Source of the DNA: a virus
IMG/VR virus record: IMGVR_UViG_3300049571_000582
Location: 46,670 to 110,669 of that record
Strand: one strand, 5' to 3'
DNA: 64,000 nucleotides
Shown here: one piece after another, positions 14,840-58,034 of the stretch
Layout: each line of letters opens with the position of its first letter
Numbering within the stretch: position 1 is the stretch's first letter
Position numbers and translations under genes: made by a program
The notes under the pieces: generated by a model
What the model saw: the letters and a program-made list of their open reading frames with translations, nothing else
Database searches by the model: none
What the model was told of the DNA's origin: nothing

Positions 14840-14850
14840 AGATCGGGCAA
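14840..14850 (-). promoter_or_regulatory. TTGCCCGATCT motif copy
   Basis: Exact motif immediately upstream of the GAGG RBS and ATG 14831. Confidence 0.65.
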
Positions 14851-46032: not shown

Positions 46033-48045
46033 ATGTACCTCGGTGTCAATCTCGAAGGCATCAACGACTACGCCCGTAACTTCATGTTCGCGGACCTGAT
46101 GAAGCAGTCCCGCGCCTGGGGCAGCTTGGACAAGCCCTACGACGCTGCATCACCCGTTGATGCCTCCGGGTGGCCCACCAAGGATGCCGGAACATACCTG
46201 GTGACGGCTGCGACGGCGGGCACCGCCGCAGGCAAGTACCAGCTCGGCGGCCGCTACCGGGTCACCTGGGACGGAGACGGCAAGCTCGAGGGGTTCTCGA
46301 TGGACGCCACCATCGAAAACTATGCGCACGACGACAAGGCCAACACTTCGTCTGCTGACCTCGTCGTGCATGACAACAACGACCAGATCGCCATCCGCTT
46401 CCGCGGCACTAAAGCCGGCGTTCGCAATGTGAAGGTGTGGCAGCCAGGCTACGAGGACGGGAAGCGGACCTTCACCGACAACTTCCTGAAGCTCATCGCC
46501 CCCTTCTCGACGCTTCGATTCATGGATGCCATGGGCACCAACGGCAGCCCGGTGAAGAATTGGTCGGATCGCACGCTTCAGACCTCGGCATCCCAGGCGG
46601 GGCCGGCGGGCATCGCGTACGAGTATATCGTCGAGTTGGCGAACCTGACCAAGAAGGACATCTGGGTCAACATCCCGCACCAATTCACAAGCGACTATGC
46701 GAAGCAGTTCGCCCAGTTGCTTTTCAAGGGGCTCGACAAGGACATCAACGTCTACGTCGAGCACTCCAATGAAACGTGGAACTGGGGATTTCCGCAGGCC
46801 GGCTGGAATCGCGACCAGGCTTCCGCGGAGCAGGCAGCGGGCACGTTCAACTACAACTACGACAAATGCGATAACGTCTATTACTGGGCGTGGCGTCGCA
46901 ACGCTGAAATGGCGATCCAGATCCAGAAGATCTTCTCCGATGTCTTCGGCACCACCAGCCGCGTTCGCGTCGTGCTGTGCGCCCAGATCGGGTGGGGCGA
47001 GGGTTCTTACCAACTCCAGCAGTACAGTGACGCCCTTGCTTATGTGAAGGCCGTCCACGGAGACCCGAAGAACTACTTCTATGGCATCGGCTCGGGATCC
47101 TACACGGGCCTGAGCGACGCGGATAAGGCACGCACTGACCTGACGGCCGACAGCGTGCTGCAGGCCATCATCTCGAACGTTGCGTGGTTCCGCCCCAAGC
47201 AGGACCTCATGACCAAGCTCGCCAAGTCCTACGGTATCCGCAACGTCGCTTATGAAGGCGGCCTGGACTTGACCGCCCCTGACGATCTCATGAACCGGAT
47301 CCGGAATGGAACCGCCACCGACGCCGATCGCGCCACGCTTGCGGCCCTACAGGATGTTCACTACCTCCCCGGGATGCAGGATTTTCTCCTGTCGCTTTTC
47401 AAGGACTGGTTCGCGGCGGACGGCGATGTCTTCTGCTGGTTCAATGCGTCGGGGCAGTTTGCCCAATACAGCTGGGGCGTCGTGGAAAATCCCATGAATC
47501 TTGCTACCCCCAAGTATGCCGCCCTCGCCCAGGTCGCCGCCAACGATGCGAGTTGGAAGCCGGCGAAGATCCCGCCCACCGTTCCCACTGGCCCGATCAC
47601 CCCCACAACGCCTGCGGACCCTGCCCCCAAGGCTCCGGACGCCTATGCCGTCGTGAAGGTCACCGTCCCGGTTGCGCCATGCACGGTGAACGCGGAAGAC
47701 GCGGCATGCTTTTCGGGAATGAAGATCGAGAGCAACACCCCGGACGGGTCGAAGAACCTGGGATACATCACCCCCATGGGCGTGGCAGGATTTCTTGTGG
47801 CGACGGAGAAGGTCGGACGCTACGGGATCATGATCAATCTCTCGGGTATGGCTGACAGTATGCAGCTGGTCGTGTCCTCCGGCTTGTCGCTGGTCCGGGC
47901 CACCCTCAAGAGCACCGGTTCGTGGCAGAACTACGTCGACGTCCTCGTGGGCGAGATGGAATTGCCGGCCGGGGTGTCGATGCTGCAGGTGATTTCGCTC
48001 ACCGGCGGAATCAACATCCGAAGTGTGACGCTGAAAGGCGTATAA
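46033..48045 (+). CDS. Glycoside-hydrolase-like TIM-barrel protein with Pro/Thr linker and C-terminal CBM6/CBM35-like module
   Basis: LRFMD, WVNIPH, VEHSNETWN, AYEGG; PPTVPTGPITPTTP linker; STGSWQNY...GGINI. Confidence 0.72.
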   Translation: MYLGVNLEGINDYARNFMFADLMKQSRAWGSLDKPYDAASPVDASGWPTKDAGTYLVTAATAGTAAGKYQLGGRYRVTWDGDGKLEGFSMDATIENYAHDDKANTSSADLVVHDNNDQIAIRFRGTKAGVRNVKVWQPGYEDGKRTFTDNFLKLIAPFSTLRFMDAMGTNGSPVKNWSDRTLQTSASQAGPAGIAYEYIVELANLTKKDIWVNIPHQFTSDYAKQFAQLLFKGLDKDINVYVEHSNETWNWGFPQAGWNRDQASAEQAAGTFNYNYDKCDNVYYWAWRRNAEMAIQIQKIFSDVFGTTSRVRVVLCAQIGWGEGSYQLQQYSDALAYVKAVHGDPKNYFYGIGSGSYTGLSDADKARTDLTADSVLQAIISNVAWFRPKQDLMTKLAKSYGIRNVAYEGGLDLTAPDDLMNRIRNGTATDADRATLAALQDVHYLPGMQDFLLSLFKDWFAADGDVFCWFNASGQFAQYSWGVVENPMNLATPKYAALAQVAANDASWKPAKIPPTVPTGPITPTTPADPAPKAPDAYAVVKVTVPVAPCTVNAEDAACFSGMKIESNTPDGSKNLGYITPMGVAGFLVATEKVGRYGIMINLSGMADSMQLVVSSGLSLVRATLKSTGSWQNYVDVLVGEMELPAGVSMLQVISLTGGINIRSVTLKGV

Positions 48046-48058
48046 CCTAAATGGTGAC

Positions 48059-48087
48059 GGCCCGGGGCACATCGCCCCGGGCCTCTT
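48059..48087 (+). terminator. Terminator-like hairpin
   Basis: GGCCCGGGGC-ACATC-GCCCCGGGCC followed by TCTT. Confidence 0.55.
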
Positions 48088-48104
48088 ACTTAATGGGGGG
48101 AACT

Positions 48105-48659
48105 ATGTCGACCTTGATGCAGGCACGATACATCTACGGGCTGGGCGAGGGGCGCACGGGCCGTGGAAATGGACTCGCCGACAGTGCGGACTGGACACGC
48201 CAGACGTTCCCGGATGTCGACGTCGTGATCAATGAGTATGGCGACGATGTTGCCCGGGAACTCCGCGAGAGTGCCCAGCGGGGCATCCGGCTGTTCTTCC
48301 TGGCGGGCCACAGCTTCGGTGGCGCTGCGATCATTCGGGCGGCCAAGGAGCTTGAGCAGGAACTGTCAATCCAGGTTGCGGTGCTGGTGGATCCGGTCAC
48401 CAATTTGCTCTGGGGGCAAACCAAGGCTTCTGCATGGCATGTCCAGGACAACATCCTTGATGCGATGTGCTTTTACCAGCGGCAAAGCGTGTTTCCTGTT
48501 TGCTCGAGCATGATCAGGAATCTGGGGCCGGGGCGGACCAACACCCTGGTGGATGGCCTTTCCCGGTACGAGCACTGCACGATCTGCAAGGATGAAAGGG
48601 TGCACCTGCACATTAGTTCGCAGATCACGAAGATGCATCAGCGTGCGATTGACGGGTGA
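48105..48659 (+). CDS. Small alpha/beta hydrolase
   Basis: GHSFGG nucleophile elbow, LVDPV, C-terminal His (EHCTI). Confidence 0.8.
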   Translation: MSTLMQARYIYGLGEGRTGRGNGLADSADWTRQTFPDVDVVINEYGDDVARELRESAQRGIRLFFLAGHSFGGAAIIRAAKELEQELSIQVAVLVDPVTNLLWGQTKASAWHVQDNILDAMCFYQRQSVFPVCSSMIRNLGPGRTNTLVDGLSRYEHCTICKDERVHLHISSQITKMHQRAIDG

Positions 48660-48788: not shown

Positions 48789-48961
48789 AATGCCGATCAA
48801 TGACAGTCAGGTCTCCAGAAGCTTTCCTAACACAGGTGTCCAAACGTCGGACCCCACGACGTATTGCATCGACAATGCAACGCTAAGTCAACGCCCCACC
48901 CGTCACCATGAGCACATAACTTAGTTCAGTTACATACTTTATCGAAGACGTAGATATTTCC

Positions 48962-48991
48962 TTGCAATCTCATGGCAACCCACACTACACT
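48962..48991 (+). promoter_or_regulatory. Putative host sigma70-type promoter of the island
   Basis: TTGCAA-N18-TACACT, 60 nt upstream of ATG 49051. Confidence 0.4.
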
Positions 48992-49050
48992 CCCCCGTAA
49001 GCGACAATGGCTTATTTTGTGATCTGCAATGCAATTTTGGGAGAAGTGGC

Positions 49051-50610
49051 ATGGGTGTCGGGCACAAAATCACCTCCCTGACAGTTTTGACGTGTATCCT
49101 TGTTGGCCTCGTACGCGCATTTGCGGCAGCCCCCGGCACTCCTGCTCCTACCAGCACACGTCCTGCATTTGGTCCAACGCCTGCGCCACCTATTGAGCAG
49201 AACCGGTTGAATCAAACCCAGCCGGCGGAAAATGTCACCGTCGTGAGCGGCTTAGCGGGGTCAAAAGCGTTCGTGGTTTCCAAGATAGACGCCGCGCACT
49301 TTTCAGTGAACTTGTCCAAGTCGCCGTCTCCTTGGTTTTGCCTCCAAGTCCATGGTCCAGTGGGAACACTTGTCCGGATCGATTTTCTCGGCGTCACCGC
49401 GCGATATTGGGCCACCTTGAACCCCGTTGCCTGCGACACCACCAACGTCGAAGATCCAAAGAACTACGACTCCAAAGACGCAGTACACGGTGGAGGCTCT
49501 ACAGACGGTTACACCAAGGCCGCTAATGGAGCTGCAGTGCCAGATGATTCCAATCAGAAGTGGAAGTTCATTCGCGATACTTGGCACGACGGCAAGTCAA
49601 CGTTTTCAGTAGTTGTAAAACTCGACTCTGCAGATATGTGTGTTGCGATGCGGTATCCGTTTACATTTAAAATGCTACAAGACCTTCAGCAGAAGATGCT
49701 CGCGGCGAAGGATGGAGTTCTTCTAAATGCTGGAAAAACGACTAACGGATTATCGTTAGACATTATCAAGCTCGTATCAACGGATAAGGCTCCCCTGACA
49801 AAGCCGACTATACTATTTTATGGCCGCGAGCACGCAGACGAGCCAGATTCGAGTTGGGCTTGTGTTGGTGCTTACATGTTTCTCACCTCCGCAGATCCCA
49901 AAGCCATTGCGATACGCAAGGAATTTAATTTTTTATTCATTCCAATACTGGATCCTGACGGCTCTGAGAATGGTACACATGATGGGATCGGAAATTTCTT
50001 CAGTCCAATCAAAACTGTACCGGAAACTCAACAGTACGCTGCATTCTTTCATAACTATGTTAAAGACGGAAATCGCTTGGATTATGTCTTCAATCTCCAC
50101 AATGTGCAATCAAGCGAGACACCCGCTATTTCGCCCTATCTCTTTGAGCCGAAGGAAGGAAGATACGAAGATTACAACGCTTTCAATTCGATGCTGAAAG
50201 CTTCGGCGGATGGAGAATCGACGCCTTTTCGGTTTCCAACCAGGCGGGCACCCAACCGAACTGGCTATATGCCAACAAGGCTGGGCGGTTACTTGAATCA
50301 AATGTATGGCTCCTATCATTTCTTTTATGAGCTTAACGCTCAGGCACCGACGAAACACCTACTCTTATTTCGGCTCCAACAGATTGGAAAGGAGTTCGTT
50401 ACGACCTTTGCTGAATACTATAATACCGCTGGACCTCTCCAACTTCCGAATATCGACGCCCGGCTTGCACAACAGAAATCGTTTTGGACTAAATATGGGA
50501 GCGACCATGCGACGGACAATATGATTTTCTTTGAATCGTCCTGCATACTAGATGCGTCTCTTGCAGGTGAATCGGTATCTATCAAACAAGGTGCCGAACA
50601 AATTCCGTGA
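49051..50610 (+). CDS. Exported M14 zinc carboxypeptidase-like protein (CCP/Nna1-like N-domain)
   Basis: Signal peptide; GREHADE (HxxE), IPILDPDG, NLH, YELN. Confidence 0.8.
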   Translation: MGVGHKITSLTVLTCILVGLVRAFAAAPGTPAPTSTRPAFGPTPAPPIEQNRLNQTQPAENVTVVSGLAGSKAFVVSKIDAAHFSVNLSKSPSPWFCLQVHGPVGTLVRIDFLGVTARYWATLNPVACDTTNVEDPKNYDSKDAVHGGGSTDGYTKAANGAAVPDDSNQKWKFIRDTWHDGKSTFSVVVKLDSADMCVAMRYPFTFKMLQDLQQKMLAAKDGVLLNAGKTTNGLSLDIIKLVSTDKAPLTKPTILFYGREHADEPDSSWACVGAYMFLTSADPKAIAIRKEFNFLFIPILDPDGSENGTHDGIGNFFSPIKTVPETQQYAAFFHNYVKDGNRLDYVFNLHNVQSSETPAISPYLFEPKEGRYEDYNAFNSMLKASADGESTPFRFPTRRAPNRTGYMPTRLGGYLNQMYGSYHFFYELNAQAPTKHLLLFRLQQIGKEFVTTFAEYYNTAGPLQLPNIDARLAQQKSFWTKYGSDHATDNMIFFESSCILDASLAGESVSIKQGAEQIP

Positions 50611-50637
50611 TACGTTTGAAACTTATTGGAGGCTTCA

Positions 50638-51117
50638 ATGAAGTTGGTACCAAAGTTACTTTCCTTCGGTGCAATGGGCTTGCTTTGTGGGGCCGCCATG
50701 CTATCGGCCGCGGGACGACCCCAGGCAGACTCAATGGTGCTTTCGCCGGCTGAGCTTCGCGCGGTGACTGGAACGGGAGGTTGTGACGGCTACTTTACCA
50801 AAATGTCCGGTGTACAGTGCGGAGATCATGAGGTCCAACCTTGCTACGATGCATGGGGTGGCGATTGCAAAAGTCATCCTTGTGCATCGTATTGTACACT
50901 CTTGCCACCCGATCGTATGGATGTGTCTCGCGACACGCCTAATGCAATCTTGTTTCGTGGAGTAATTGGCACACCCCCGTGTGGCCTAATGGGAAGCCAA
51001 TATATTATGCGTGTCTGTACAGAAGGGCTAATTTACGGATGTAATTGTGATGGTCAGCCAGCGGGTAATCCACATCCATGTATGACTATTACGGGATGGG
51101 AAAGCGTGGGTTGTTAA
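50638..51117 (+). CDS. Cys-rich precursor protein with Sec signal and double-glycine-type leader
   Basis: GGAGG RBS; hydrophobic signal, then LSPAELRAVTGTGG, then a 111-aa core with 12 Cys. Confidence 0.75.
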   Translation: MKLVPKLLSFGAMGLLCGAAMLSAAGRPQADSMVLSPAELRAVTGTGGCDGYFTKMSGVQCGDHEVQPCYDAWGGDCKSHPCASYCTLLPPDRMDVSRDTPNAILFRGVIGTPPCGLMGSQYIMRVCTEGLIYGCNCDGQPAGNPHPCMTITGWESVGC

Positions 51118-51136
51118 TTATTCGATCGGAAGATCT

Positions 51137-52396
51137 ATGTCTAGTGCTCCTAAGTCTATTTGCCGCCGCAGCATTACTGCTGCGGCGGCGCTGGCGTGTG
51201 TGGTTGGCATGTGTATTTTCAACCAAAGAGCGCACGGGGAGGATTTAGTTCCCATCCGAGGAGTTAGTGAGGACGACCAGCCACGAGCGACTGACCAAGC
51301 CGCTCGCCTGACCAAGGATGAATTGCTAGTTGCTGTTCGCGGCTTGCGATCCCAAATTGAAGATTTTAGTGTTCAGTACACAGACAAGTCCCTTTTGGGA
51401 AGTCCCGGGGAAATTAAGGACCTTGATCATCGCTTAATCACAAAAGGTAATGTACTGTTCTATACGGAAACAAGCTACGTAGTAGGTACAGCAAAAAATC
51501 CTAAGCCCATCCGGTCAGTCGTTTCGTTTAACGGTCAGCAAGTAACTCGATTTCTGATGAACCGATCTGTGGCGCAGATTGATGAGTCTCGGGATGCGAA
51601 TAATACTCTGAAGGACTTATTTATCCTTGAAGGCAATCTAATTGCGCCGCCTTCACCTAAAGGCAGCGGATACGATGACCTTAATCTCGAATCTGCCTTA
51701 GCATCTCCTTCGGCAACTGTTCATAGTAAAATGGAATCGATTGGAACATTTGAGTGTTATGTTGTTGATGTGGCGAGTAAACGATCTGACCAACTAGAGA
51801 TGCGTACGTTTCTTGCCGAGAACTATGGTTTCGTTCCAGTTCGCACAATATACTTTTCTCACAATGTAGACCATACAAAGATGATTGAAGTTAATGCCTT
51901 GCAGATTACGTCAGTTCAAGGCAAATTCTGGTTTGCAACCCATCTGATGCGTCACTATTTTCCTTCGAATAATGGACTGCCTGAGGGGCGGGTTGAGGTG
52001 TCTACGAAAATAAAAGACGGGAAGTGTGCCATTGGAGTGAATACTGGTGTTTCGGATGAGTTTTTCGATGCATGGAAGCGGTTACCTCCGGGGACCGTAC
52101 TGAACGATTCTTCCAAAGGAACGATGACAACTGTTCAGGGCACAGACCTTAAAAAAGTTGGTGAAAACATAAAAGCATCAACCGACAGCCTTCCGCTAAG
52201 TATCCCAGAGCGTGTGGGGGCGACCGAGTCAACCGTGCCCTCGGTTGCACGCCCTCTAGCGAGCCAAGCGACCAGCAGCTTCGGGTGGCTTTCCTCTACT
52301 TTGGTTGTTGGGGCAGGCCTTGGGATAATAGGGATCTTAATTCTCTATATGCGAAAAACTGCAAATGATCAAAGTCCGACGAGGGGGAGCCAGTGA
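51137..52396 (+). CDS. Exported beta-rich protein with C-terminal membrane anchor (possibly LolA-like fold)
   Basis: Signal peptide ending AHG; SFNG, CYVVD, ENYGFVP pattern; TM helix LVVGAGLGIIGILILY followed by RK. Confidence 0.65.
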   Translation: MSSAPKSICRRSITAAAALACVVGMCIFNQRAHGEDLVPIRGVSEDDQPRATDQAARLTKDELLVAVRGLRSQIEDFSVQYTDKSLLGSPGEIKDLDHRLITKGNVLFYTETSYVVGTAKNPKPIRSVVSFNGQQVTRFLMNRSVAQIDESRDANNTLKDLFILEGNLIAPPSPKGSGYDDLNLESALASPSATVHSKMESIGTFECYVVDVASKRSDQLEMRTFLAENYGFVPVRTIYFSHNVDHTKMIEVNALQITSVQGKFWFATHLMRHYFPSNNGLPEGRVEVSTKIKDGKCAIGVNTGVSDEFFDAWKRLPPGTVLNDSSKGTMTTVQGTDLKKVGENIKASTDSLPLSIPERVGATESTVPSVARPLASQATSSFGWLSSTLVVGAGLGIIGILILYMRKTANDQSPTRGSQ

Positions 52397-54135
52397 GGCA
52401 ATCCAAATCGCCGAGTTATGTTATGGCGTCTATAGCCCAAATGCTGTTCTTGGTGCTTATTAGTTTTGGCACTTGTGGTATGGGGCCAGCAAGCCAAGAT
52501 GCGAAGAATTTGCAAGGTGCCGATCAGCGAACCTTCTGTGGTCCGATGGCGGCCGCCGGCGTGATGGGGATTCTGAATAAATCTTTTGATAATGAGGAGT
52601 TGCTGGCTCTCGTTTCCCCCGATGGCGCTACGAGCTTTCAGTCACTCTCTGAGTTCTTTGACCGTCACGGGTTGCACACATTAGGCGTCCGGCTTTCGCC
52701 GGCGCAACTGTGGAGCACTCATAACGTCGCGATCGTCCAAGTAATTAGTCCTACACAAGAAAATGCATATCACCTATGTGTGTACTGTGGGCCAGCACCC
52801 GCCGACGTTGGTAAATCTATTTATATTTTCGATCCTTATGGTATAAATGGGCTCAGAGGAGAGATGCCGTTGGAGGAGTTTTCGGAGTTATATACAGGTA
52901 AAGCATTGCTTGTGTCCACCTACCCAATCCGAGAACCGGTCGCGACCGATAATCCGCATACGTCGTTGTGGGACATCAGGAGAGTTATGATGATCTCAGG
53001 AGTGGGAGTTTTGGTAATTTTGGCCACACTTTTTTGGAAGGTTTTATTTAGACGTCGTGCTAACGCCTTTGTCTATTGCATTATCGCGGTTGGTGGCCTA
53101 GCGTGCCAGTCCTCATGGGCTGAATCGCCGCCACAGACTCAAGCCAGCACTCGGGCCGCGGCATTAGCAACATCTCCTTTTGTCGAGGGCTCTACCGAAC
53201 GGGTCATGCCGGATATATCTTTGGGCGATTCCCTGTCCGTCGACTACAAAGTCAAGAATCCAACGACGAAAGCGATAACAATTGATTTTGTCTCGATTAC
53301 GTGTAACTGCATTGCCGTTACCTCGAAGCTTCCAATGTCGTTGCCGCCAGGGGCGGAGTCGGTCTTAAACGTCAAATTTCAGCCCCGCAGCGGTGGTCCT
53401 GTCAAACAGGGGGTTTTGCTTAGTGTATCCCCGGGTATCAGGCTCCCTCTCTATGTTTCAACGGTAGTCAAGGGAGACACTAAATTCGAGCCTCGCACGT
53501 TAGACTTTGGTCGGGTGTTCAACGACGGGATAGCGGAAAGTCGCGTGCTACGTATTACCCATGTTGGTGCAATAGACGAAGGCTTCTCGGTTAAGCGTGT
53601 TACCCCAAGCGTTCCCTGGCTGAAAGTGGGGGAAATGAAAGCTGGGGCATTAACCAAGGTTGATGCGGAGGTCGCTCAGCTGGATACTGATGTGAGTATA
53701 GAGCTTCTCCCTTCGAAGATCACTAACCTGAAAGATTCTGACGTTTTTTTGGAGATACTAGCCTCGAGGACGCGTGATTCTAAAGACTTGAAGTTTTTCA
53801 TGCCTGTGTCGTTGACTGTACAGCCGCGTTTAGTTAGTTCTCCCTCCGGTGCTCTGATCAGTCAAGATCCGCTGCCGAGTGAGCTTGAATGGACATTCAC
53901 GTTGCGGGATCAGGAAGTCGCTGGTTCCCTTCCGGAGATCTCTTCGATCACCGGCGATGGCTGCTTGAGCGTAACGGGCTTTTCTACAAACAAATTGAAG
54001 GATCGCGTCCAAGTTACCGTTAAGTTGAAGGCATCGGTCGATGGTGAACGCGGCACCGGGGAAATACGTGTAATATCCCCCTCTTCGCGTGATGCGTTGC
54101 TAATACCGATGCGGTTTTTGAAGGCTAGTAAATGA
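52393..54135 (+). CDS. C39-like cysteine peptidase fused via hydrophobic segments to DUF1573-like Ig domains
   Basis: N-terminal hydrophobic segment; Q...CGP, YHLCV, IFDP...EEFSELYTG..L; central TM; ITCNC...LPPGAES. Confidence 0.82.
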   Translation: MRQSKSPSYVMASIAQMLFLVLISFGTCGMGPASQDAKNLQGADQRTFCGPMAAAGVMGILNKSFDNEELLALVSPDGATSFQSLSEFFDRHGLHTLGVRLSPAQLWSTHNVAIVQVISPTQENAYHLCVYCGPAPADVGKSIYIFDPYGINGLRGEMPLEEFSELYTGKALLVSTYPIREPVATDNPHTSLWDIRRVMMISGVGVLVILATLFWKVLFRRRANAFVYCIIAVGGLACQSSWAESPPQTQASTRAAALATSPFVEGSTERVMPDISLGDSLSVDYKVKNPTTKAITIDFVSITCNCIAVTSKLPMSLPPGAESVLNVKFQPRSGGPVKQGVLLSVSPGIRLPLYVSTVVKGDTKFEPRTLDFGRVFNDGIAESRVLRITHVGAIDEGFSVKRVTPSVPWLKVGEMKAGALTKVDAEVAQLDTDVSIELLPSKITNLKDSDVFLEILASRTRDSKDLKFFMPVSLTVQPRLVSSPSGALISQDPLPSELEWTFTLRDQEVAGSLPEISSITGDGCLSVTGFSTNKLKDRVQVTVKLKASVDGERGTGEIRVISPSSRDALLIPMRFLKASK

Positions 54136-55217
54136 AGGCATCTCTGCTCATTGTTTCAAGCCTAGCTATCTTGCTGATCGGTTTTATCTCCTGGTGTTTC
54201 TATTCCAGTGGTACCAAGCCCGTACATCGGCGATCACTGGAAGTTTCTAATGCGCTGAAAGCCCAGATCAACTTGGAAGTTCAGCGTTACAGTGATTTCG
54301 AGCTGAATGATTCAATGCCACCGTGGACTTTGATACACGGCATGATTGGGAGAAGTCACGATTTCCGCATCCGCACAAGTTCCGGCCCAAAGTTGTGCTC
54401 AGATGTGCTTTTGGACGAGCTCACCGCACATCCAAAGTACAAGCGGTCTAGACTGGTAACCCATCCTACTTACGGCTATGTCTTTTCGCACGGGCGTGAT
54501 GGCACCCCTATGGAATTCGAAGATCATCAGTCGGACTTTGTAAGTGCGTTCTTGTCATGCGGTGTGGATCTCAATCGGCGCATTGTAATTGATGATCATG
54601 CACCCAATATACGCTTATCTGACATTTGGGACACGGAGTTGCTTGGTACGAGCGGTTTTACGGATGTGAGTTGGACCGTTTGGGCGCTATTGATGAGTTC
54701 TCCAGACCGTACTTGGACGAATCGGTTTGGTGAGCGGTATTCATTAGACACACTGGTACGGCAGCACTTAGCCAATGAGGAACAAGGGGTGGCGTGCTTC
54801 GGAACCCATTGGCGAATGGGCCTTGCGCAGGTTGTCCTTTTGGGCCGGCAACATTTATCCCCTGAGACTTACCGCCTCGCTGAGAACAGGCTAGCGGAAC
54901 TCGTCGCCGTAGAGAGAAACGTTACAGCTAGTGGAATGTTTGGGGGAGCGGATTCTCGGTTGCCACCAAGTGAGGGCAATCAAGATGCAGCCTTGCTGTT
55001 GTACCAAGGACATACCCTAGAATGGCTTATGGTGGCGTTTCAGTGCTGCTCTGAAATTTCGGCTTTCGATGATGCCCAACAGTGGGTTAATAGTGGCGCT
55101 ACCGCGTTACAACACCTCTTAGGGTCTAGAAATTGCAGTGATATGAATTACGGATCATACTCACATGCAATCAACGGACTTCGCGCTTTTTTGCACAATA
55201 GCGATGGCGTAGAGTAG
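54132..55217 (+). CDS. Membrane-anchored His-rich helical protein of a family I associate with Planctomycetes
   Basis: N-terminal TM; PWTLIHG, EDH, SWT, WTNRFGE, ACFGTH, GHTLEWL, YSHA motifs. Confidence 0.65.
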   Translation: MKASLLIVSSLAILLIGFISWCFYSSGTKPVHRRSLEVSNALKAQINLEVQRYSDFELNDSMPPWTLIHGMIGRSHDFRIRTSSGPKLCSDVLLDELTAHPKYKRSRLVTHPTYGYVFSHGRDGTPMEFEDHQSDFVSAFLSCGVDLNRRIVIDDHAPNIRLSDIWDTELLGTSGFTDVSWTVWALLMSSPDRTWTNRFGERYSLDTLVRQHLANEEQGVACFGTHWRMGLAQVVLLGRQHLSPETYRLAENRLAELVAVERNVTASGMFGGADSRLPPSEGNQDAALLLYQGHTLEWLMVAFQCCSEISAFDDAQQWVNSGATALQHLLGSRNCSDMNYGSYSHAINGLRAFLHNSDGVE

Positions 55218-55399
55218 ATTCGAGTTCTTGGAACGCTTATTCGATGACGGCGGAAGAAGAGTCGACCGGCCGGGGGATCTTCATCCTGAAAACCGATACC
55301 AATCGCATGGTCCACAACCCTTCGCACGTAGAGCGTCCTTCTAACTAGACACGTCCATAAAACCCGAGCAGGTACCCAATAGGTCGCTGGTTTTTCGAC

Positions 55400-55642
55400 T
55401 TAATCTTCTTCGTCGTCGAAGAAGACATCATCGTCATCGTCATCGAACTCGTCCTCGTCCTCAAAGTCATCATCGTCGTCGTCGAGGAAGTCCTCGTCGT
55501 CGTCCAGAAGGTCGTCCTCGTCGTCATCAAGGAAATCGTCGTCGTCGAAATCCTCTTCTTCGTCTTCAAACGTGTTGGCTGTGGGGGTGGTGACCAGGAC
55601 GCCGCGGGGATCGAACTCGGACGCCACGATGGACAACGTCAT
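55400..55642 (-). CDS. Extremely acidic small protein
   Basis: AAGGAG RBS; last 55 aa almost entirely D/E with interspersed F/L. Confidence 0.75.
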   Translation of the reverse strand: MTLSIVASEFDPRGVLVTTPTANTFEDEEEDFDDDDFLDDDEDDLLDDDEDFLDDDDDDFEDEDEFDDDDDDVFFDDEED

Positions 55643-55670: not shown

Positions 55671-55681
55671 AGATCGGGCAA
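55671..55681 (-). promoter_or_regulatory. TTGCCCGATCT motif copy
   Basis: Exact motif 28 nt upstream of the acidic-protein ATG. Confidence 0.65.
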
Positions 55682-56108: not shown

Positions 56109-56450
56109 TTATACACCCAGCACAAGTTGCATGTGCTGGGCGAGATGTTTGATTTTTGCCTGCTTGCCGGGGTTGTCGCCGGCGGCCTCGGCAAGCTGCT
56201 TTACCGCCTCAATGATGCCCTTGGCATTGACCTTGCCACGAGGCGAGGTGATGTCCCCACCGCATGCCAGATCTTCCAGGGTGGCCGATGCCATCAGCCG
56301 GTGAGAGAGATCCTCTGCTGCTGCCCGGGTAATCTGCTCCCAGGCGGCCTGACTGTAATGCTCGCTGATCGCCTCTGACAAAATGACGTTAAGGGATTCG
56401 ACGAGCTCTCGGCAGGCCAATGCAACGATCTTCTCTCGGCGGTCATGCAT
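56109..56450 (-). CDS. Hypothetical protein
   Basis: Overlaps the stop of the upstream gene; AAGG RBS. Confidence 0.65.
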   Translation of the reverse strand: MHDRREKIVALACRELVESLNVILSEAISEHYSQAAWEQITRAAAEDLSHRLMASATLEDLACGGDITSPRGKVNAKGIIEAVKQLAEAAGDNPGKQAKIKHLAQHMQLVLGV

Positions 56451-57930
56451 CCTTCAACTCCTTTGGCGGGGGACCCTGGAAGAACAGATCTTGGTCCTGC
56501 AATGCAAGTATCGTCGAACGCGCACCTAGTTCCGTCAGGGCGTCGTGATACTTTGAGGAAAGATGATCCATTTCGTAGTGGTGGCCAAACTCGTGGATCG
56601 CCAGGTCAATGACGCGGGGGAGGTTTCCGGGGAAGGCTTCAAACCACTTGTGGCCAAGCCTTCCCAGGTTCAAGGTCAGGACGCTGTGTCCGTAGTTGGC
56701 CAGCCAGAACACCGTGGGCTCGTTTGCGATCTTGACGTCGATCGGGCCAATGCCCAGTCCAAGGGCGTACTTCTTCAGCCACTCGACCATCCATCGCATT
56801 CCCGGGGTCCAGTCCGACGGCGGCACCAGTTTCTCGGGCCGGCCGTGGAGGCTGTAGGGGCTCGGGGTGGGCGAGATTTCGCCGGCAGGCTTGCTCAGGC
56901 CGAACGCTCGGACATTCTCCCACTGGGACGCGTTGAGGCTCCCTCCCATGATGGGCGTGAAGCCCTCCGACACCAGCCGATTGTTTGCCTCGTGGTCGGA
57001 GGGATCGAAAGTGAACCGCTTGTCGCCAAAGCGGTGCGTGAGCATCTGGTTGACGACGCTGGGGGCAATGCGGGGGTCGCTCGTGGCTTCCTGCACTTCG
57101 GTGGACGCTGCCCGCTCCTTGTCCATGAGGTGGGCCGTGTGATTGAGCACCTCGACCCGCAGCGCCCGAAGGTATGCCGGCCCCACGTTGTCGCGGTCCA
57201 TGTTCAGAGGGACTTTCTGCTGGATGTTCACATGGAAGGTGTCCCCGGTCTCCACCACGGGAATGCCCATTTCGAAGATCATTGCCTTCTCGCCTGCGGC
57301 GGGTTGATAGACTTCGACGATCGTCTTGCGTGTAACGCGACGAAGGACCCCCTCAGGGTCTGCCAGCACTGTGGGGAGGACCGCCTCGAAGGCTGTGACC
57401 GGCGGCGGGGCTGTAAGAAGCCTGCCGTTGAAGGTGGTGTCTATGGGGGGAGGGGGTAGGAAGCGGGCCACCTCGGATTCGATTTCGACCAACTCGTCCC
57501 GCGTCATGGGGATTTCGGCGATGAAGCTGGTCCCCCGGGGCTGACAATCGCAAGAGGTACGGCGGGTCCCGTCACGAAAGAATGTGACGGTGCCAGTGGT
57601 GGAGGTGATCTTGGCGAAGTTGCACAGGGCAAGGACCACCTTTTCGCCCATGTTGAAGCGCCCTCGCTTGTTGGCCTGGCACTTCTTGTTGCTCTCGGCG
57701 AACATCGTCCAGGCGTGACTGAGGTTCTTGAACCCTTCGGGGGAGTCGTCGGCAACCGTCAGCGTTGCCACAGGGCGACCAGGGACAGGCTCGAGAGTGA
57801 CGTCGACCTTGGTCACTCCATCTTCGTCCCAGCAGTTCTGCAGCAGTTCTTGAAGGATGAAGACCTTGCCGCGGTCAGCCACGAGCTTTGCGAGGCCGGC
57901 CTTGTCGATTTCGAACCAGGAATTGCTCAT
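56443..57930 (-). CDS. GHKL (Hsp90/MORC-type) ATPase fused to a C-terminal HExxH zincin-like domain
   Basis: ELLQNCWD, DDSPEG, RGRFNMG, GT; C-terminal IHEFGHH...HLS..YH. Confidence 0.8.
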   Translation of the reverse strand: MSNSWFEIDKAGLAKLVADRGKVFILQELLQNCWDEDGVTKVDVTLEPVPGRPVATLTVADDSPEGFKNLSHAWTMFAESNKKCQANKRGRFNMGEKVVLALCNFAKITSTTGTVTFFRDGTRRTSCDCQPRGTSFIAEIPMTRDELVEIESEVARFLPPPPIDTTFNGRLLTAPPPVTAFEAVLPTVLADPEGVLRRVTRKTIVEVYQPAAGEKAMIFEMGIPVVETGDTFHVNIQQKVPLNMDRDNVGPAYLRALRVEVLNHTAHLMDKERAASTEVQEATSDPRIAPSVVNQMLTHRFGDKRFTFDPSDHEANNRLVSEGFTPIMGGSLNASQWENVRAFGLSKPAGEISPTPSPYSLHGRPEKLVPPSDWTPGMRWMVEWLKKYALGLGIGPIDVKIANEPTVFWLANYGHSVLTLNLGRLGHKWFEAFPGNLPRVIDLAIHEFGHHYEMDHLSSKYHDALTELGARSTILALQDQDLFFQGPPPKELKDA

Positions 57931-58034
57931 ATATTGTCCTATAGCGGTATCTACTAAAACAGATGAAACGGACACGTGGTGCGGCATGCCCTTTGCGTCT
58001 CACTCAAGTGATCGCTTATTGAAAGGAGCTTTTC

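Follow-up and report, generated by a model that had tools for sequence, protein, structure and literature searches.

Double-glycine leaders are cleaved by the C39 cysteine-peptidase domain of ATP-binding cassette (ABC) exporters, on the cytoplasmic side of the membrane. What the C39 domains of PCAT exporters read in a substrate is a periodicity of hydrophobic residues and the position of a Gly shortly before the cut, and the residue at -1 is G, A or S. A C39 peptidase at work outside the cytoplasm has been described in the Fap functional amyloid system of Pseudomonas, where FapD is an active, stand-alone periplasmic enzyme of a Sec-dependent pathway and its catalytic Cys is needed for Fap secretion (PMC5557850). 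The substrate and the cleavage site of FapD are unknown, and the Fap proteins carry no canonical motif (PMC5557850). The analysis presented here concerns a 64,000-nucleotide stretch of viral DNA, called the window from here on (positions 46,670 to 110,669 of the IMG/VR record IMGVR_UViG_3300049571_000582), and within it an island of five genes at 49051-55217, named g1 to g5 from left to right (Table 1). Four of them, g2 to g5, form a genuine conserved multi-gene module, in which a Cys-rich protein with a Sec-type signal and a double-glycine-type motif is encoded beside a C39 peptidase that is predicted to face the periplasm.

The five genes are co-oriented on the + strand and closely spaced, with gaps of at most 27 nt and 4-nt overlaps at two junctions, where the GTG start of g4 overlaps the stop of g3 and the start of g5 overlaps the stop of g4. 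The GC content per kb is 0.46-0.51 in the island vs ~0.60 on either side, rising again past 55.3 kb, and the GC content of third codon positions (GC3) is 0.45-0.53 in the island genes vs 0.72-0.82 in seven flanking phage genes; the island is the sole low-GC stretch of the full 110,669-bp record. An N-terminal hydrophobic segment is found in all five products. The Pfam family M14 scores 34.7 bits in g1 (cut-off 21.6; profile positions 18-105 of 286 aligned), and g4 contains both C39 (PF03412, 33.2 bits vs cut-off 22, residues 48-175) and DUF1573 (PF07610, 27.2 bits vs cut-off 26.1, residues 275-342). These results agree with an initial annotation made from the sequence alone, which had described closely spaced, co-oriented genes of a composition unlike that of the phage, each product starting with a signal peptide or transmembrane segment, and had recognized the M14, C39 and DUF1573 domains, all of which score above the curated cut-offs. 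No usable family was found for any island protein in PHROGs, NCBIfam or PADLOC, NCBIfam giving two rows only, far below threshold, on the DUF1573 region of g4.

Homologues of g2-g5 recur in the same order in ~10 independent loci, obtained from scans of genome and metagenome contigs and from whole-genome searches, with 401 sampled genomes of the phylum Planctomycetota. The chromosomal loci belong to metagenome-assembled genomes (MAGs) of Phycisphaerales, Pirellulales and Tepidisphaeraceae and to other Planctomycetota genomes. A Cys-rich gene is followed in order by homologues of g3, g4 and g5 in L002, L005 (=L042), L039, L041 and L043, and by homologues of g3 and g4 in L003 (=L044); in L006 and L040, the Cys-rich gene and g3 are accompanied by a C39 protein of ~246 aa that stands alone. 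In the locus L058, a thioredoxin-like gene and the Cys-rich gene precede g3, which is followed by separate genes for C39 (209 aa) and DUF1573 (333 aa) and by a MauE-like gene; L058 thereby represents an unfused form of g4, with a lipobox-type signal on both the C39 and the DUF1573 protein; this arrangement implies a functional link between the two domains and a location of both outside the cytoplasm. The stand-alone C39 proteins score 46.7 bits (L058) and 37.6 bits (L040) in Pfam, and all related loci have g3 as the immediate upstream neighbour of the C39 gene. Four of the chromosomal loci (L058, L002, L041 and L043) are flanked by MauE-like genes, members of disulfide-formation pathways, and such neighbours fit a Cys-rich periplasmic substrate. 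The co-occurrence of the five genes, as first proposed, holds for g2-g5, whose synteny is a direct observation, and breaks down for g1: its counterpart is absent from every other module locus, and g1 is an add-on of the phage copy, outside the conserved core. A motif scan for open reading frames with a Walker A motif and the LSGGQ signature found none in window 40-64 kb or in nine related loci, for which it covered the fetched flanks of up to ~10 kb per side, less at contig ends; within that range the claim that no ABC exporter accompanies the genes stands.

The candidate substrate is the product of g2. Its start at ATG 50638, which gives the 159-aa form, has a GGAGG Shine-Dalgarno sequence 5 nt upstream; an internal ATG at 50734, from which a classical N-terminal leader with no signal peptide would be made, was rejected because it has no ribosome-binding site and because the hydrophobic N-terminus is kept by all g2 homologues. 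Residues 35-48 form the motif L-S-x-x-E-L-x-x-V-x-G-T-G-G, in which L35 occupies position -12, E39 -8, L40 -7, V43 -4, G45 -2 and T46 -1 with respect to a C39 cut that is inferred to fall after residue 46. The hydrophobic periodicity and the position of the Gly are those read by the C39 domains of PCAT exporters. The protein is 19-28% identical to the Cys-rich proteins of its family, and in a 10-sequence alignment seven Cys are invariant, while L35 and G45, both located downstream of the signal peptide and ahead of the first core Cys, are the sole invariant non-Cys residues after Met1. The GG-type leader that had been suspected behind the signal is the most conserved non-Cys feature of the family. 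When 11 members are aligned on the Gly, G at -2 and L at -12 occur in 11/11, V or I at -4 in 8 and L, M or V at -7 in 8, and position -8 is often E, D or Q; a Sec-type hydrophobic segment precedes the GG-type motif in 11/11. The distance from the inferred cut to the first core Cys is 1-4 residues in the 11 members, and the predicted mature proteins have 83-124 residues with 12-15 Cys. The very last residue is Cys in 7/11 members (51112-51114 in the window), one more ending in Cys-Glu and another in Cys-Asp. A g2 profile had no match in the PDB, and a word-indexed protein search with g2 returned g2 itself alone. Feature matches in the Atlas, to Campylobacterota 'bacteriocin' clusters, had scores <0.8 and were discarded as too weak to count.

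The presumed peptidase is the product of g4. A word-indexed protein search found no relative of it, and an exhaustive HMMER search found 11 full-length relatives at ~30% identity. Since C49, H127 and D147 do not vary among ten family members sharing ~30% identity, the C39 domain is very likely, from conservation, catalytically competent. The sequence match of the family to the solved LahT-type domain has E 0.54 only; the family profile also matches the HYDIN/ASH families of immunoglobulin (Ig)-like domains, and Pfam finds no ABC domain in g4. An N-terminal hydrophobic segment precedes C39 in 9/10 members and two hydrophobic helices follow it in all ten, the loop between them (TM2-TM3) containing 3-6 K/R and no more than one acidic residue. 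By the positive-inside rule this K/R-rich loop is predicted to be cytoplasmic, which would place the C39 domain and the DUF1573 region on the same, periplasmic side of the membrane, and the placement agrees with L058, where C39 and DUF1573 each have a lipobox-type signal. The notion of an exported, active-type C39 enzyme, put forward in the initial annotation, is thus favoured by the invariant triad, by the positive-inside rule and by the lipoprotein form.

The two remaining members of the core, g3 and g5, represent two unannotated families: an anchored LolA-like family and an (alpha/alpha)6-toroid family, in keeping with their first description as 'beta-rich' and 'helical', respectively. The layout of g3 comprises an N-terminal signal, a LolA/RseB/TP_0789-like body, a membrane anchor at ~389-405 and a short K/R-rich tail. 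No Pfam family matches g3, and there is no sequence-level match to the LolA/RseB/TP_0789 families; the likeness is structural, the ESM Atlas model of the exact g3 protein (predicted local distance difference test score, pLDDT, 0.58) aligning over residues ~52-335 to TP_0789-like, LolA and MucB/RseB clusters; the TM-scores are 0.63-0.72 when the hit is taken for normalisation and 0.44-0.47 when the query is. Because a C-terminal membrane helix and then a tail with 2-5 K/R are present in 9/9 members, the body of g3 is read as periplasmic and membrane-anchored.

No Pfam family matches g5 either. An AlphaFold2 model built from 12 sequences (pLDDT 76, predicted TM-score 0.76) folds as an (alpha/alpha)6 toroid over residues ~36-361, for which VIA gives Z 13-15 with 240-275 residues aligned, a root-mean-square deviation of 3.4-4.4 and 5-12% identity; the matches are GH105/GH88 hydrolases, squalene cyclases, transcobalamin and thioester domains, none of which stands out, and those of Foldseek are weaker than VIA's. 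The invariant residues are E130, H132, D178, S180, W181, H212, E216 and C222-F-G-T-H226-W, a His/Cys/Glu/Asp set that is enzyme-like, to judge from the sequence, and no annotated family matches the motifs E-x-H, D-V-S-W and C-F-G-T-H-W. In a LanC-like or prenyltransferase reading, the invariant C222 and H226 would be candidates for the zinc set; the beta subunit of farnesyltransferase reaches Foldseek TM-scores of 0.24-0.32 only, and the 50 best VIA rows do not include LanC. The g5 family has seven clusters only among 5.8 billion proteins. In the PDB, its profile weakly matches the sequence of 8xi2 chain N ('G10 protein', E 0.0017). The g5 model also aligns with 7xdi_F, a tail protein of the archaeal virus SSV19 (Z 13.8), and toroid proteins of the g5 shape are therefore found in at least one virion.

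Taken together, these observations suggest that the g2-g5 core carries out a Sec-dependent, transporter-independent form of double-glycine leader processing. The 159-aa g2 precursor would first cross the inner membrane via Sec, and signal peptidase would cut it after export, before the propeptide docks. The protein would retain a propeptide of ~20 residues, with Leu at -12, hydrophobic residues at -7 and -4 and Gly at -2, and dock through it on the exported C39 domain. The periplasm-facing C39 domain of g4 would then cut after Gly-x, releasing a 113-residue, 12-Cys, disulfide-bonded protein, and the Ig-like DUF1573 domains of g4, together with g3 and g5, would act on g2 at the membrane, perhaps as holder or carrier, modifier or immunity factor. 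The probability that g2 is exported by Sec and then clipped by C39 in the periplasm is put at roughly 0.6; the topology, the cleavage and its site are inferred from anatomy and from the conserved features described above. As for the biological role, a phage moron of this kind would by default encode a secreted effector, and the product is most likely one, for example a bacteriocin-like toxin expressed from the phage. In a more elaborate and rather doubtful version of this proposal, the propeptide would be a periplasmic address tag that docks g2 on a membrane platform made of C39, the Ig-like domains, the LolA-like carrier and the toroid enzyme; g5 would modify g2, for instance at its conserved C-terminal Cys, before clipping, and the pathway captured by the phage, with the M14 peptidase, would arm or protect the host as a lysogenic-conversion toxin or in superinfection exclusion.

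Several observations weigh against periplasmic processing of g2 as proposed. The alignment of the g4 family shows no conservation of the oxyanion Gln that should precede the catalytic Cys (in the window, g4 has Gln at both C-4 and C-8), and -1 is T, M or R in 5/11 g2 members, T in the window, and G, A or S in 6/11. The charges flanking the single N-terminal helix of g5 do not tell its membrane side. An AlphaFold2 model of g2 from the 10-sequence alignment has a pLDDT of 43, too low for use, so that the function of the product is not indicated. The module is rare, with the full-length fusion in 2/401 genomes and the g3 family in 7/401, and nearly all loci come from MAGs or metagenomes. Finally, the phage copy lacks the MauE-like partner of the four chromosomal loci, and the motif TTGCCCGATCT, recurrent in the window (see below), is absent within and upstream of the island.

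The same genes could serve the biogenesis of a surface structure similar to Fap or a pilus, g2 being an envelope or fibre subunit whose propeptide blocks assembly until the C39 cut, and the PapD-like Ig domains of DUF1573 and g3 being periplasmic chaperones, so that the phage would remodel the host surface, e.g., for superinfection exclusion. FapD, the sole characterised periplasmic C39 enzyme, does serve fibre secretion, DUF1573 scores with the HYDIN/ASH Ig-like families, and the membrane anchoring of g3 and g4 suits an assembly platform. Moreover, proteins of ~485 aa that carry a pilin-type N-methylation motif halfway along the chain (residues ~264-286) are encoded downstream of g5, two genes on in L005 (11271-12743) and ~1.5 kb on in L002 (15267-16715), and that of L005 has DUF1559 after the motif. 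Nevertheless, the loci showed no outer-membrane channel or usher, though no search was aimed at these, and the g2 core has no repeats or amyloid-like composition; with ~110 residues and 12-15 Cys it resembles a compact, disulfide-locked globule. Assembly of a surface structure is consequently regarded as unlikely.

A slightly less probable proposal is that of envelope signalling by regulated proteolysis, in which g3 would sense a ligand and C39 would cut g2 as a signal or anti-sigma ligand, with a transcriptional output. RseB/MucB-like proteins have the fold of g3, and in the paralogous locus L040 a gene for an extracytoplasmic function (ECF) sigma factor lies upstream of the Cys-rich gene. 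The g3 fold may also be reused in a signalling context in L057 (1-5359, - strand, genome G101), where a g3-like region ends a frame of ~1,640 aa that is truncated by the contig end and has a hydrophobic N-terminus like that of a membrane protein, as in a BlaR1-like sensor; the frame is preceded by a small gene with an N-terminus that, read by eye, resembles a BlaI/MecI-type repressor. This proposal is at odds with the absence of a regulator gene near the phage island and most chromosomal loci, the four core genes travelling without one.

It is equally improbable that C39 does not cut g2 at all, either because it has another target or because it is a non-cleaving binding domain, the g2 motif being a structural element or a recognition tag. 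The atypical -1 residues and the unconserved Gln mentioned above speak for it, as does the precedent of FapD, with a substrate still unknown and Fap proteins devoid of canonical sites. However, the family keeps an invariant Cys-His-Asp triad, which catalytically dead C39-like domains do not, and the two invariant leader residues lie exactly at positions that C39 reads.

Regarding the setting, the record is classed in IMG/VR as a 'provirus', with a CheckV completeness estimate of 48%, and the window is its right-hand 64 kb. The surroundings of the island are of phage type and include a UvsX-like recombinase, a DnaB-like helicase, a primase and a split DnaE-type polymerase, in addition to ribonucleotide reductase, exonuclease V, a gene resembling 3'-phosphoadenosine 5'-phosphosulfate (PAPS) reductase and an HNH/endonuclease VII gene. 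The island is bracketed by neither direct nor inverted repeats, the left edge has no flanking repeat or copy of TTGCCCGATCT, and there are no tRNA genes in the 64-kb window. No close phage relatives for an empty-site comparison were found with three queries, the gene at 56443-57987, the carbohydrate-binding module (CBM) gene and the polymerase gene, the last two giving one distant viral contig each. That the island is inert cargo or an assembly artefact, i.e., a recent illegitimate insertion or a chimeric metagenome join with no role for the phage, would explain the sharp compositional break, the lack of TTGCCCGATCT upstream and the absence of g4 or g2 relatives from other IMG/VR contigs and INPHARED phages, but is very improbable given five intact frames, closely spaced or overlapping, phage-type genes on both flanks, and g5 and g2 proteins recorded from 8 and 5 contigs, respectively. 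The island would rather be a cassette of host type that a large phage acquired horizontally and carries as a moron, and since all the chromosomal relatives come from Planctomycetota, the host of the phage is probably a planctomycete.

The add-on gene, g1, encodes a protein that has a signal peptide and a Pro/Thr-rich linker, together with an N-terminal domain like that of CCP-like (M14D) bacterial enzymes. Its zinc motif HxxE is formed by H261 and E264, and H350 and E427, invariant in a three-sequence alignment and located in suitable motifs, are candidates for the third His ligand and the catalytic Glu. A carboxylate-binding motif of the N144/R145 type is not evident, there being no N-R after the P-D-G segment. 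The best PDB sequence match is 3l2n (E 1.5e-6), over the N-terminal domain and the HxxE region. The close relatives of g1 in the 401 genomes are two paralogues only, both on the - strand of one genome, G177 (L055 6086-10806 and L056 8012-10979), and each is directly upstream of a gene for a giant Cys-rich secreted protein. One of these proteins has 944 aa, 91 Cys and dozens of C-D-x-D-x-D-G repeats; the other has 374 aa, 36 Cys and a C-terminal prokaryotic phospholipase A2 domain, and in L055 a DUF1573 protein is encoded three genes further on. The idea that the g1 subfamily works on Cys-rich exported proteins is a lead from one genome only, and because its nearest relatives adjoin such proteins, g1 may trim or bind the g2 product. 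As a conserved step, the trimming by M14 that had been proposed is not sustained, the gene being missing from every other locus.

Table 1. Position of the island genes, their domains and the island edges in the 64,000-nt window
Feature	Position	Strand	Description
g1	49051-50610	+	exported M14-type zinc peptidase, 519 aa
g2	50638-51117 (ORF open from 50626)	+	Cys-rich secreted protein precursor, 159 aa
g2 residues 1-26	50638..50715	+	Sec-type signal peptide: K in n-region, hydrophobic core, A-A-G end (sequence reading)
g2 residues 27-46	50716..50775	+	double-glycine-type propeptide
g2 residues 47-159	50776..51114	+	113-residue core, 12 Cys
g3	51137-52396	+	LolA/RseB/TP_0789-like fold, C-terminal anchor, 419 aa
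g4	52393-54135	+	C39 + DUF1573, three-pass inner-membrane protein, 580 aa
g4 residues 48-175	52534..52917	+	C39 cysteine-peptidase domain; predicted periplasmic
g4 residues 198-243	52984..53121	+	two membrane helices with a short K/R-rich loop between them
g4 residues 264-580	53182..54132	+	DUF1573 (HYDIN/ASH/PapD-like Ig fold), then more family-conserved regions; predicted periplasmic
g5	54132-55217	+	membrane-tethered (alpha/alpha)6-toroid protein, unannotated family, 361 aa
Left edge	48900..49050	.	GC falls from ~0.60 to ~0.50 within a 390-nt intergenic stretch after the phage alpha/beta-hydrolase gene
Right edge	55218..55399	.	GC returns toward the phage level (~0.60) over the next kb, before the - strand acidic-protein gene

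Other features of the vicinity were recorded. Directly left of the island, at 46033-48659 and with phage-type GC3, are encoded a 670-aa protein with a weak, sub-threshold, C-terminal match to CBM6 and a 202-aa alpha/beta-hydrolase, which may be a phage-encoded glycan-degrading pair. On the right, the - strand gene at 55400-55642 encodes an 80-aa protein that consists of Asp and Glu for nearly its whole length, and a perfect copy of TTGCCCGATCT lies directly upstream of it, at 55671-55681. This motif has 12 copies in the window at ≤1 mismatch vs 1.7 expected, a number reached by 0/100 shuffles; copies are found, for example, at 14840, 17491, 25736, 37047, 40734, 44110 and 55671, several of them near predicted gene starts, and the motif is probably a phage promoter or regulatory element. 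The gene at 56443-57987 (- strand) encodes a 514-aa protein with no Pfam or PHROG family, relatives of which, 40-52% identical, occur on 13 IMG/VR contigs with GC of ~0.30 to 0.64; these contigs have no other tested neighbour gene in common, and the gene looks like one that travels widely on its own.

The conservation of a Sec signal and a GG motif beside an exported C39 domain, with no ABC exporter, would mean that the chemistry of recognition and cleavage of these leaders has moved to the periplasm. Since the module offers a single candidate substrate with a single predicted cut site, and a triad that does not vary, it would be a cleaner model for this chemistry than FapD, whose substrate has remained unknown since 2017. 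Furthermore, the carriage of a foreign moron by the phage points to a role in conflict between phage and host, or between host and competitor, in Planctomycetota, a phylum for which, to our knowledge, very few phages have been characterised.

When the module is compared with the known systems, the PCAT/AMS exporters (ComA, CvaB, LahT, PCAT1) share with it a C39 domain with a Cys-His-Asp triad, the adjacency of the protease and substrate genes, and substrates in which the core is directly preceded by a motif with Gly at -2 and hydrophobic positions -4, -7 and -12. In contrast to them, there is no ABC domain in g4 nor an ABC exporter near the module, the g2 leader follows a Sec signal instead of being at the N-terminus of a cytoplasmic precursor, the g4 protease is predicted to be periplasmic, and the g2 core has ~110 residues and 12 Cys, with T, M or R often found at -1 in the family. 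The label 'RiPP-like' (for ribosomally synthesized and post-translationally modified peptides) of the initial annotation is reduced to an analogy, since none of the RiPP enzyme families of Pfam and NCBIfam is present in the five island proteins.

FapD resembles g4 in that the C39 domain of the latter is predicted to act in the periplasm, in a Sec-dependent pathway, and the published case (PMC5557850) removes the earlier claim that such a system lacked precedent. The differences are that the candidate substrate g2 carries a near-canonical motif and that g4 is fused to DUF1573 and paired with LolA-like and toroid proteins. Among the neighbours scanned, Pfam recognised no FapF-like channel or amyloid-repeat subunit, in the absence of a dedicated search. 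A search of the full-text literature found stand-alone or periplasmic C39 peptidases described for Fap only, and no paper linking C39 with DUF1573.

As for the partner proteins, LolA/LolB, RseB/MucB and TP_0789-like sorting proteins share the fold predicted for g3 at ~52-335; unlike these, g3 is held by a C-terminal membrane helix and is always encoded beside an exported C39 gene. The overall fold of g5 is that of GH88/GH105 hydrolases, squalene-hopene cyclases, beta subunits of prenyltransferases, transcobalamin and thioester domains, from which it is set apart by its identity of 5-12% and by invariant motifs of its own. The M14D/CCP-like peptidases (PDB 3l2n, 3k2k, 4b6z) have the N-terminal domain and the HxxE region of g1, but g1 is exported, its N-R motif is not evident and its relatives adjoin very large Cys-rich proteins. 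What sets the present finding apart is the fusion of C39 to DUF1573, together with the toroid partner, the added M14 gene and the carriage by a phage; the module itself is best classed as a variant form of double-glycine leader processing.

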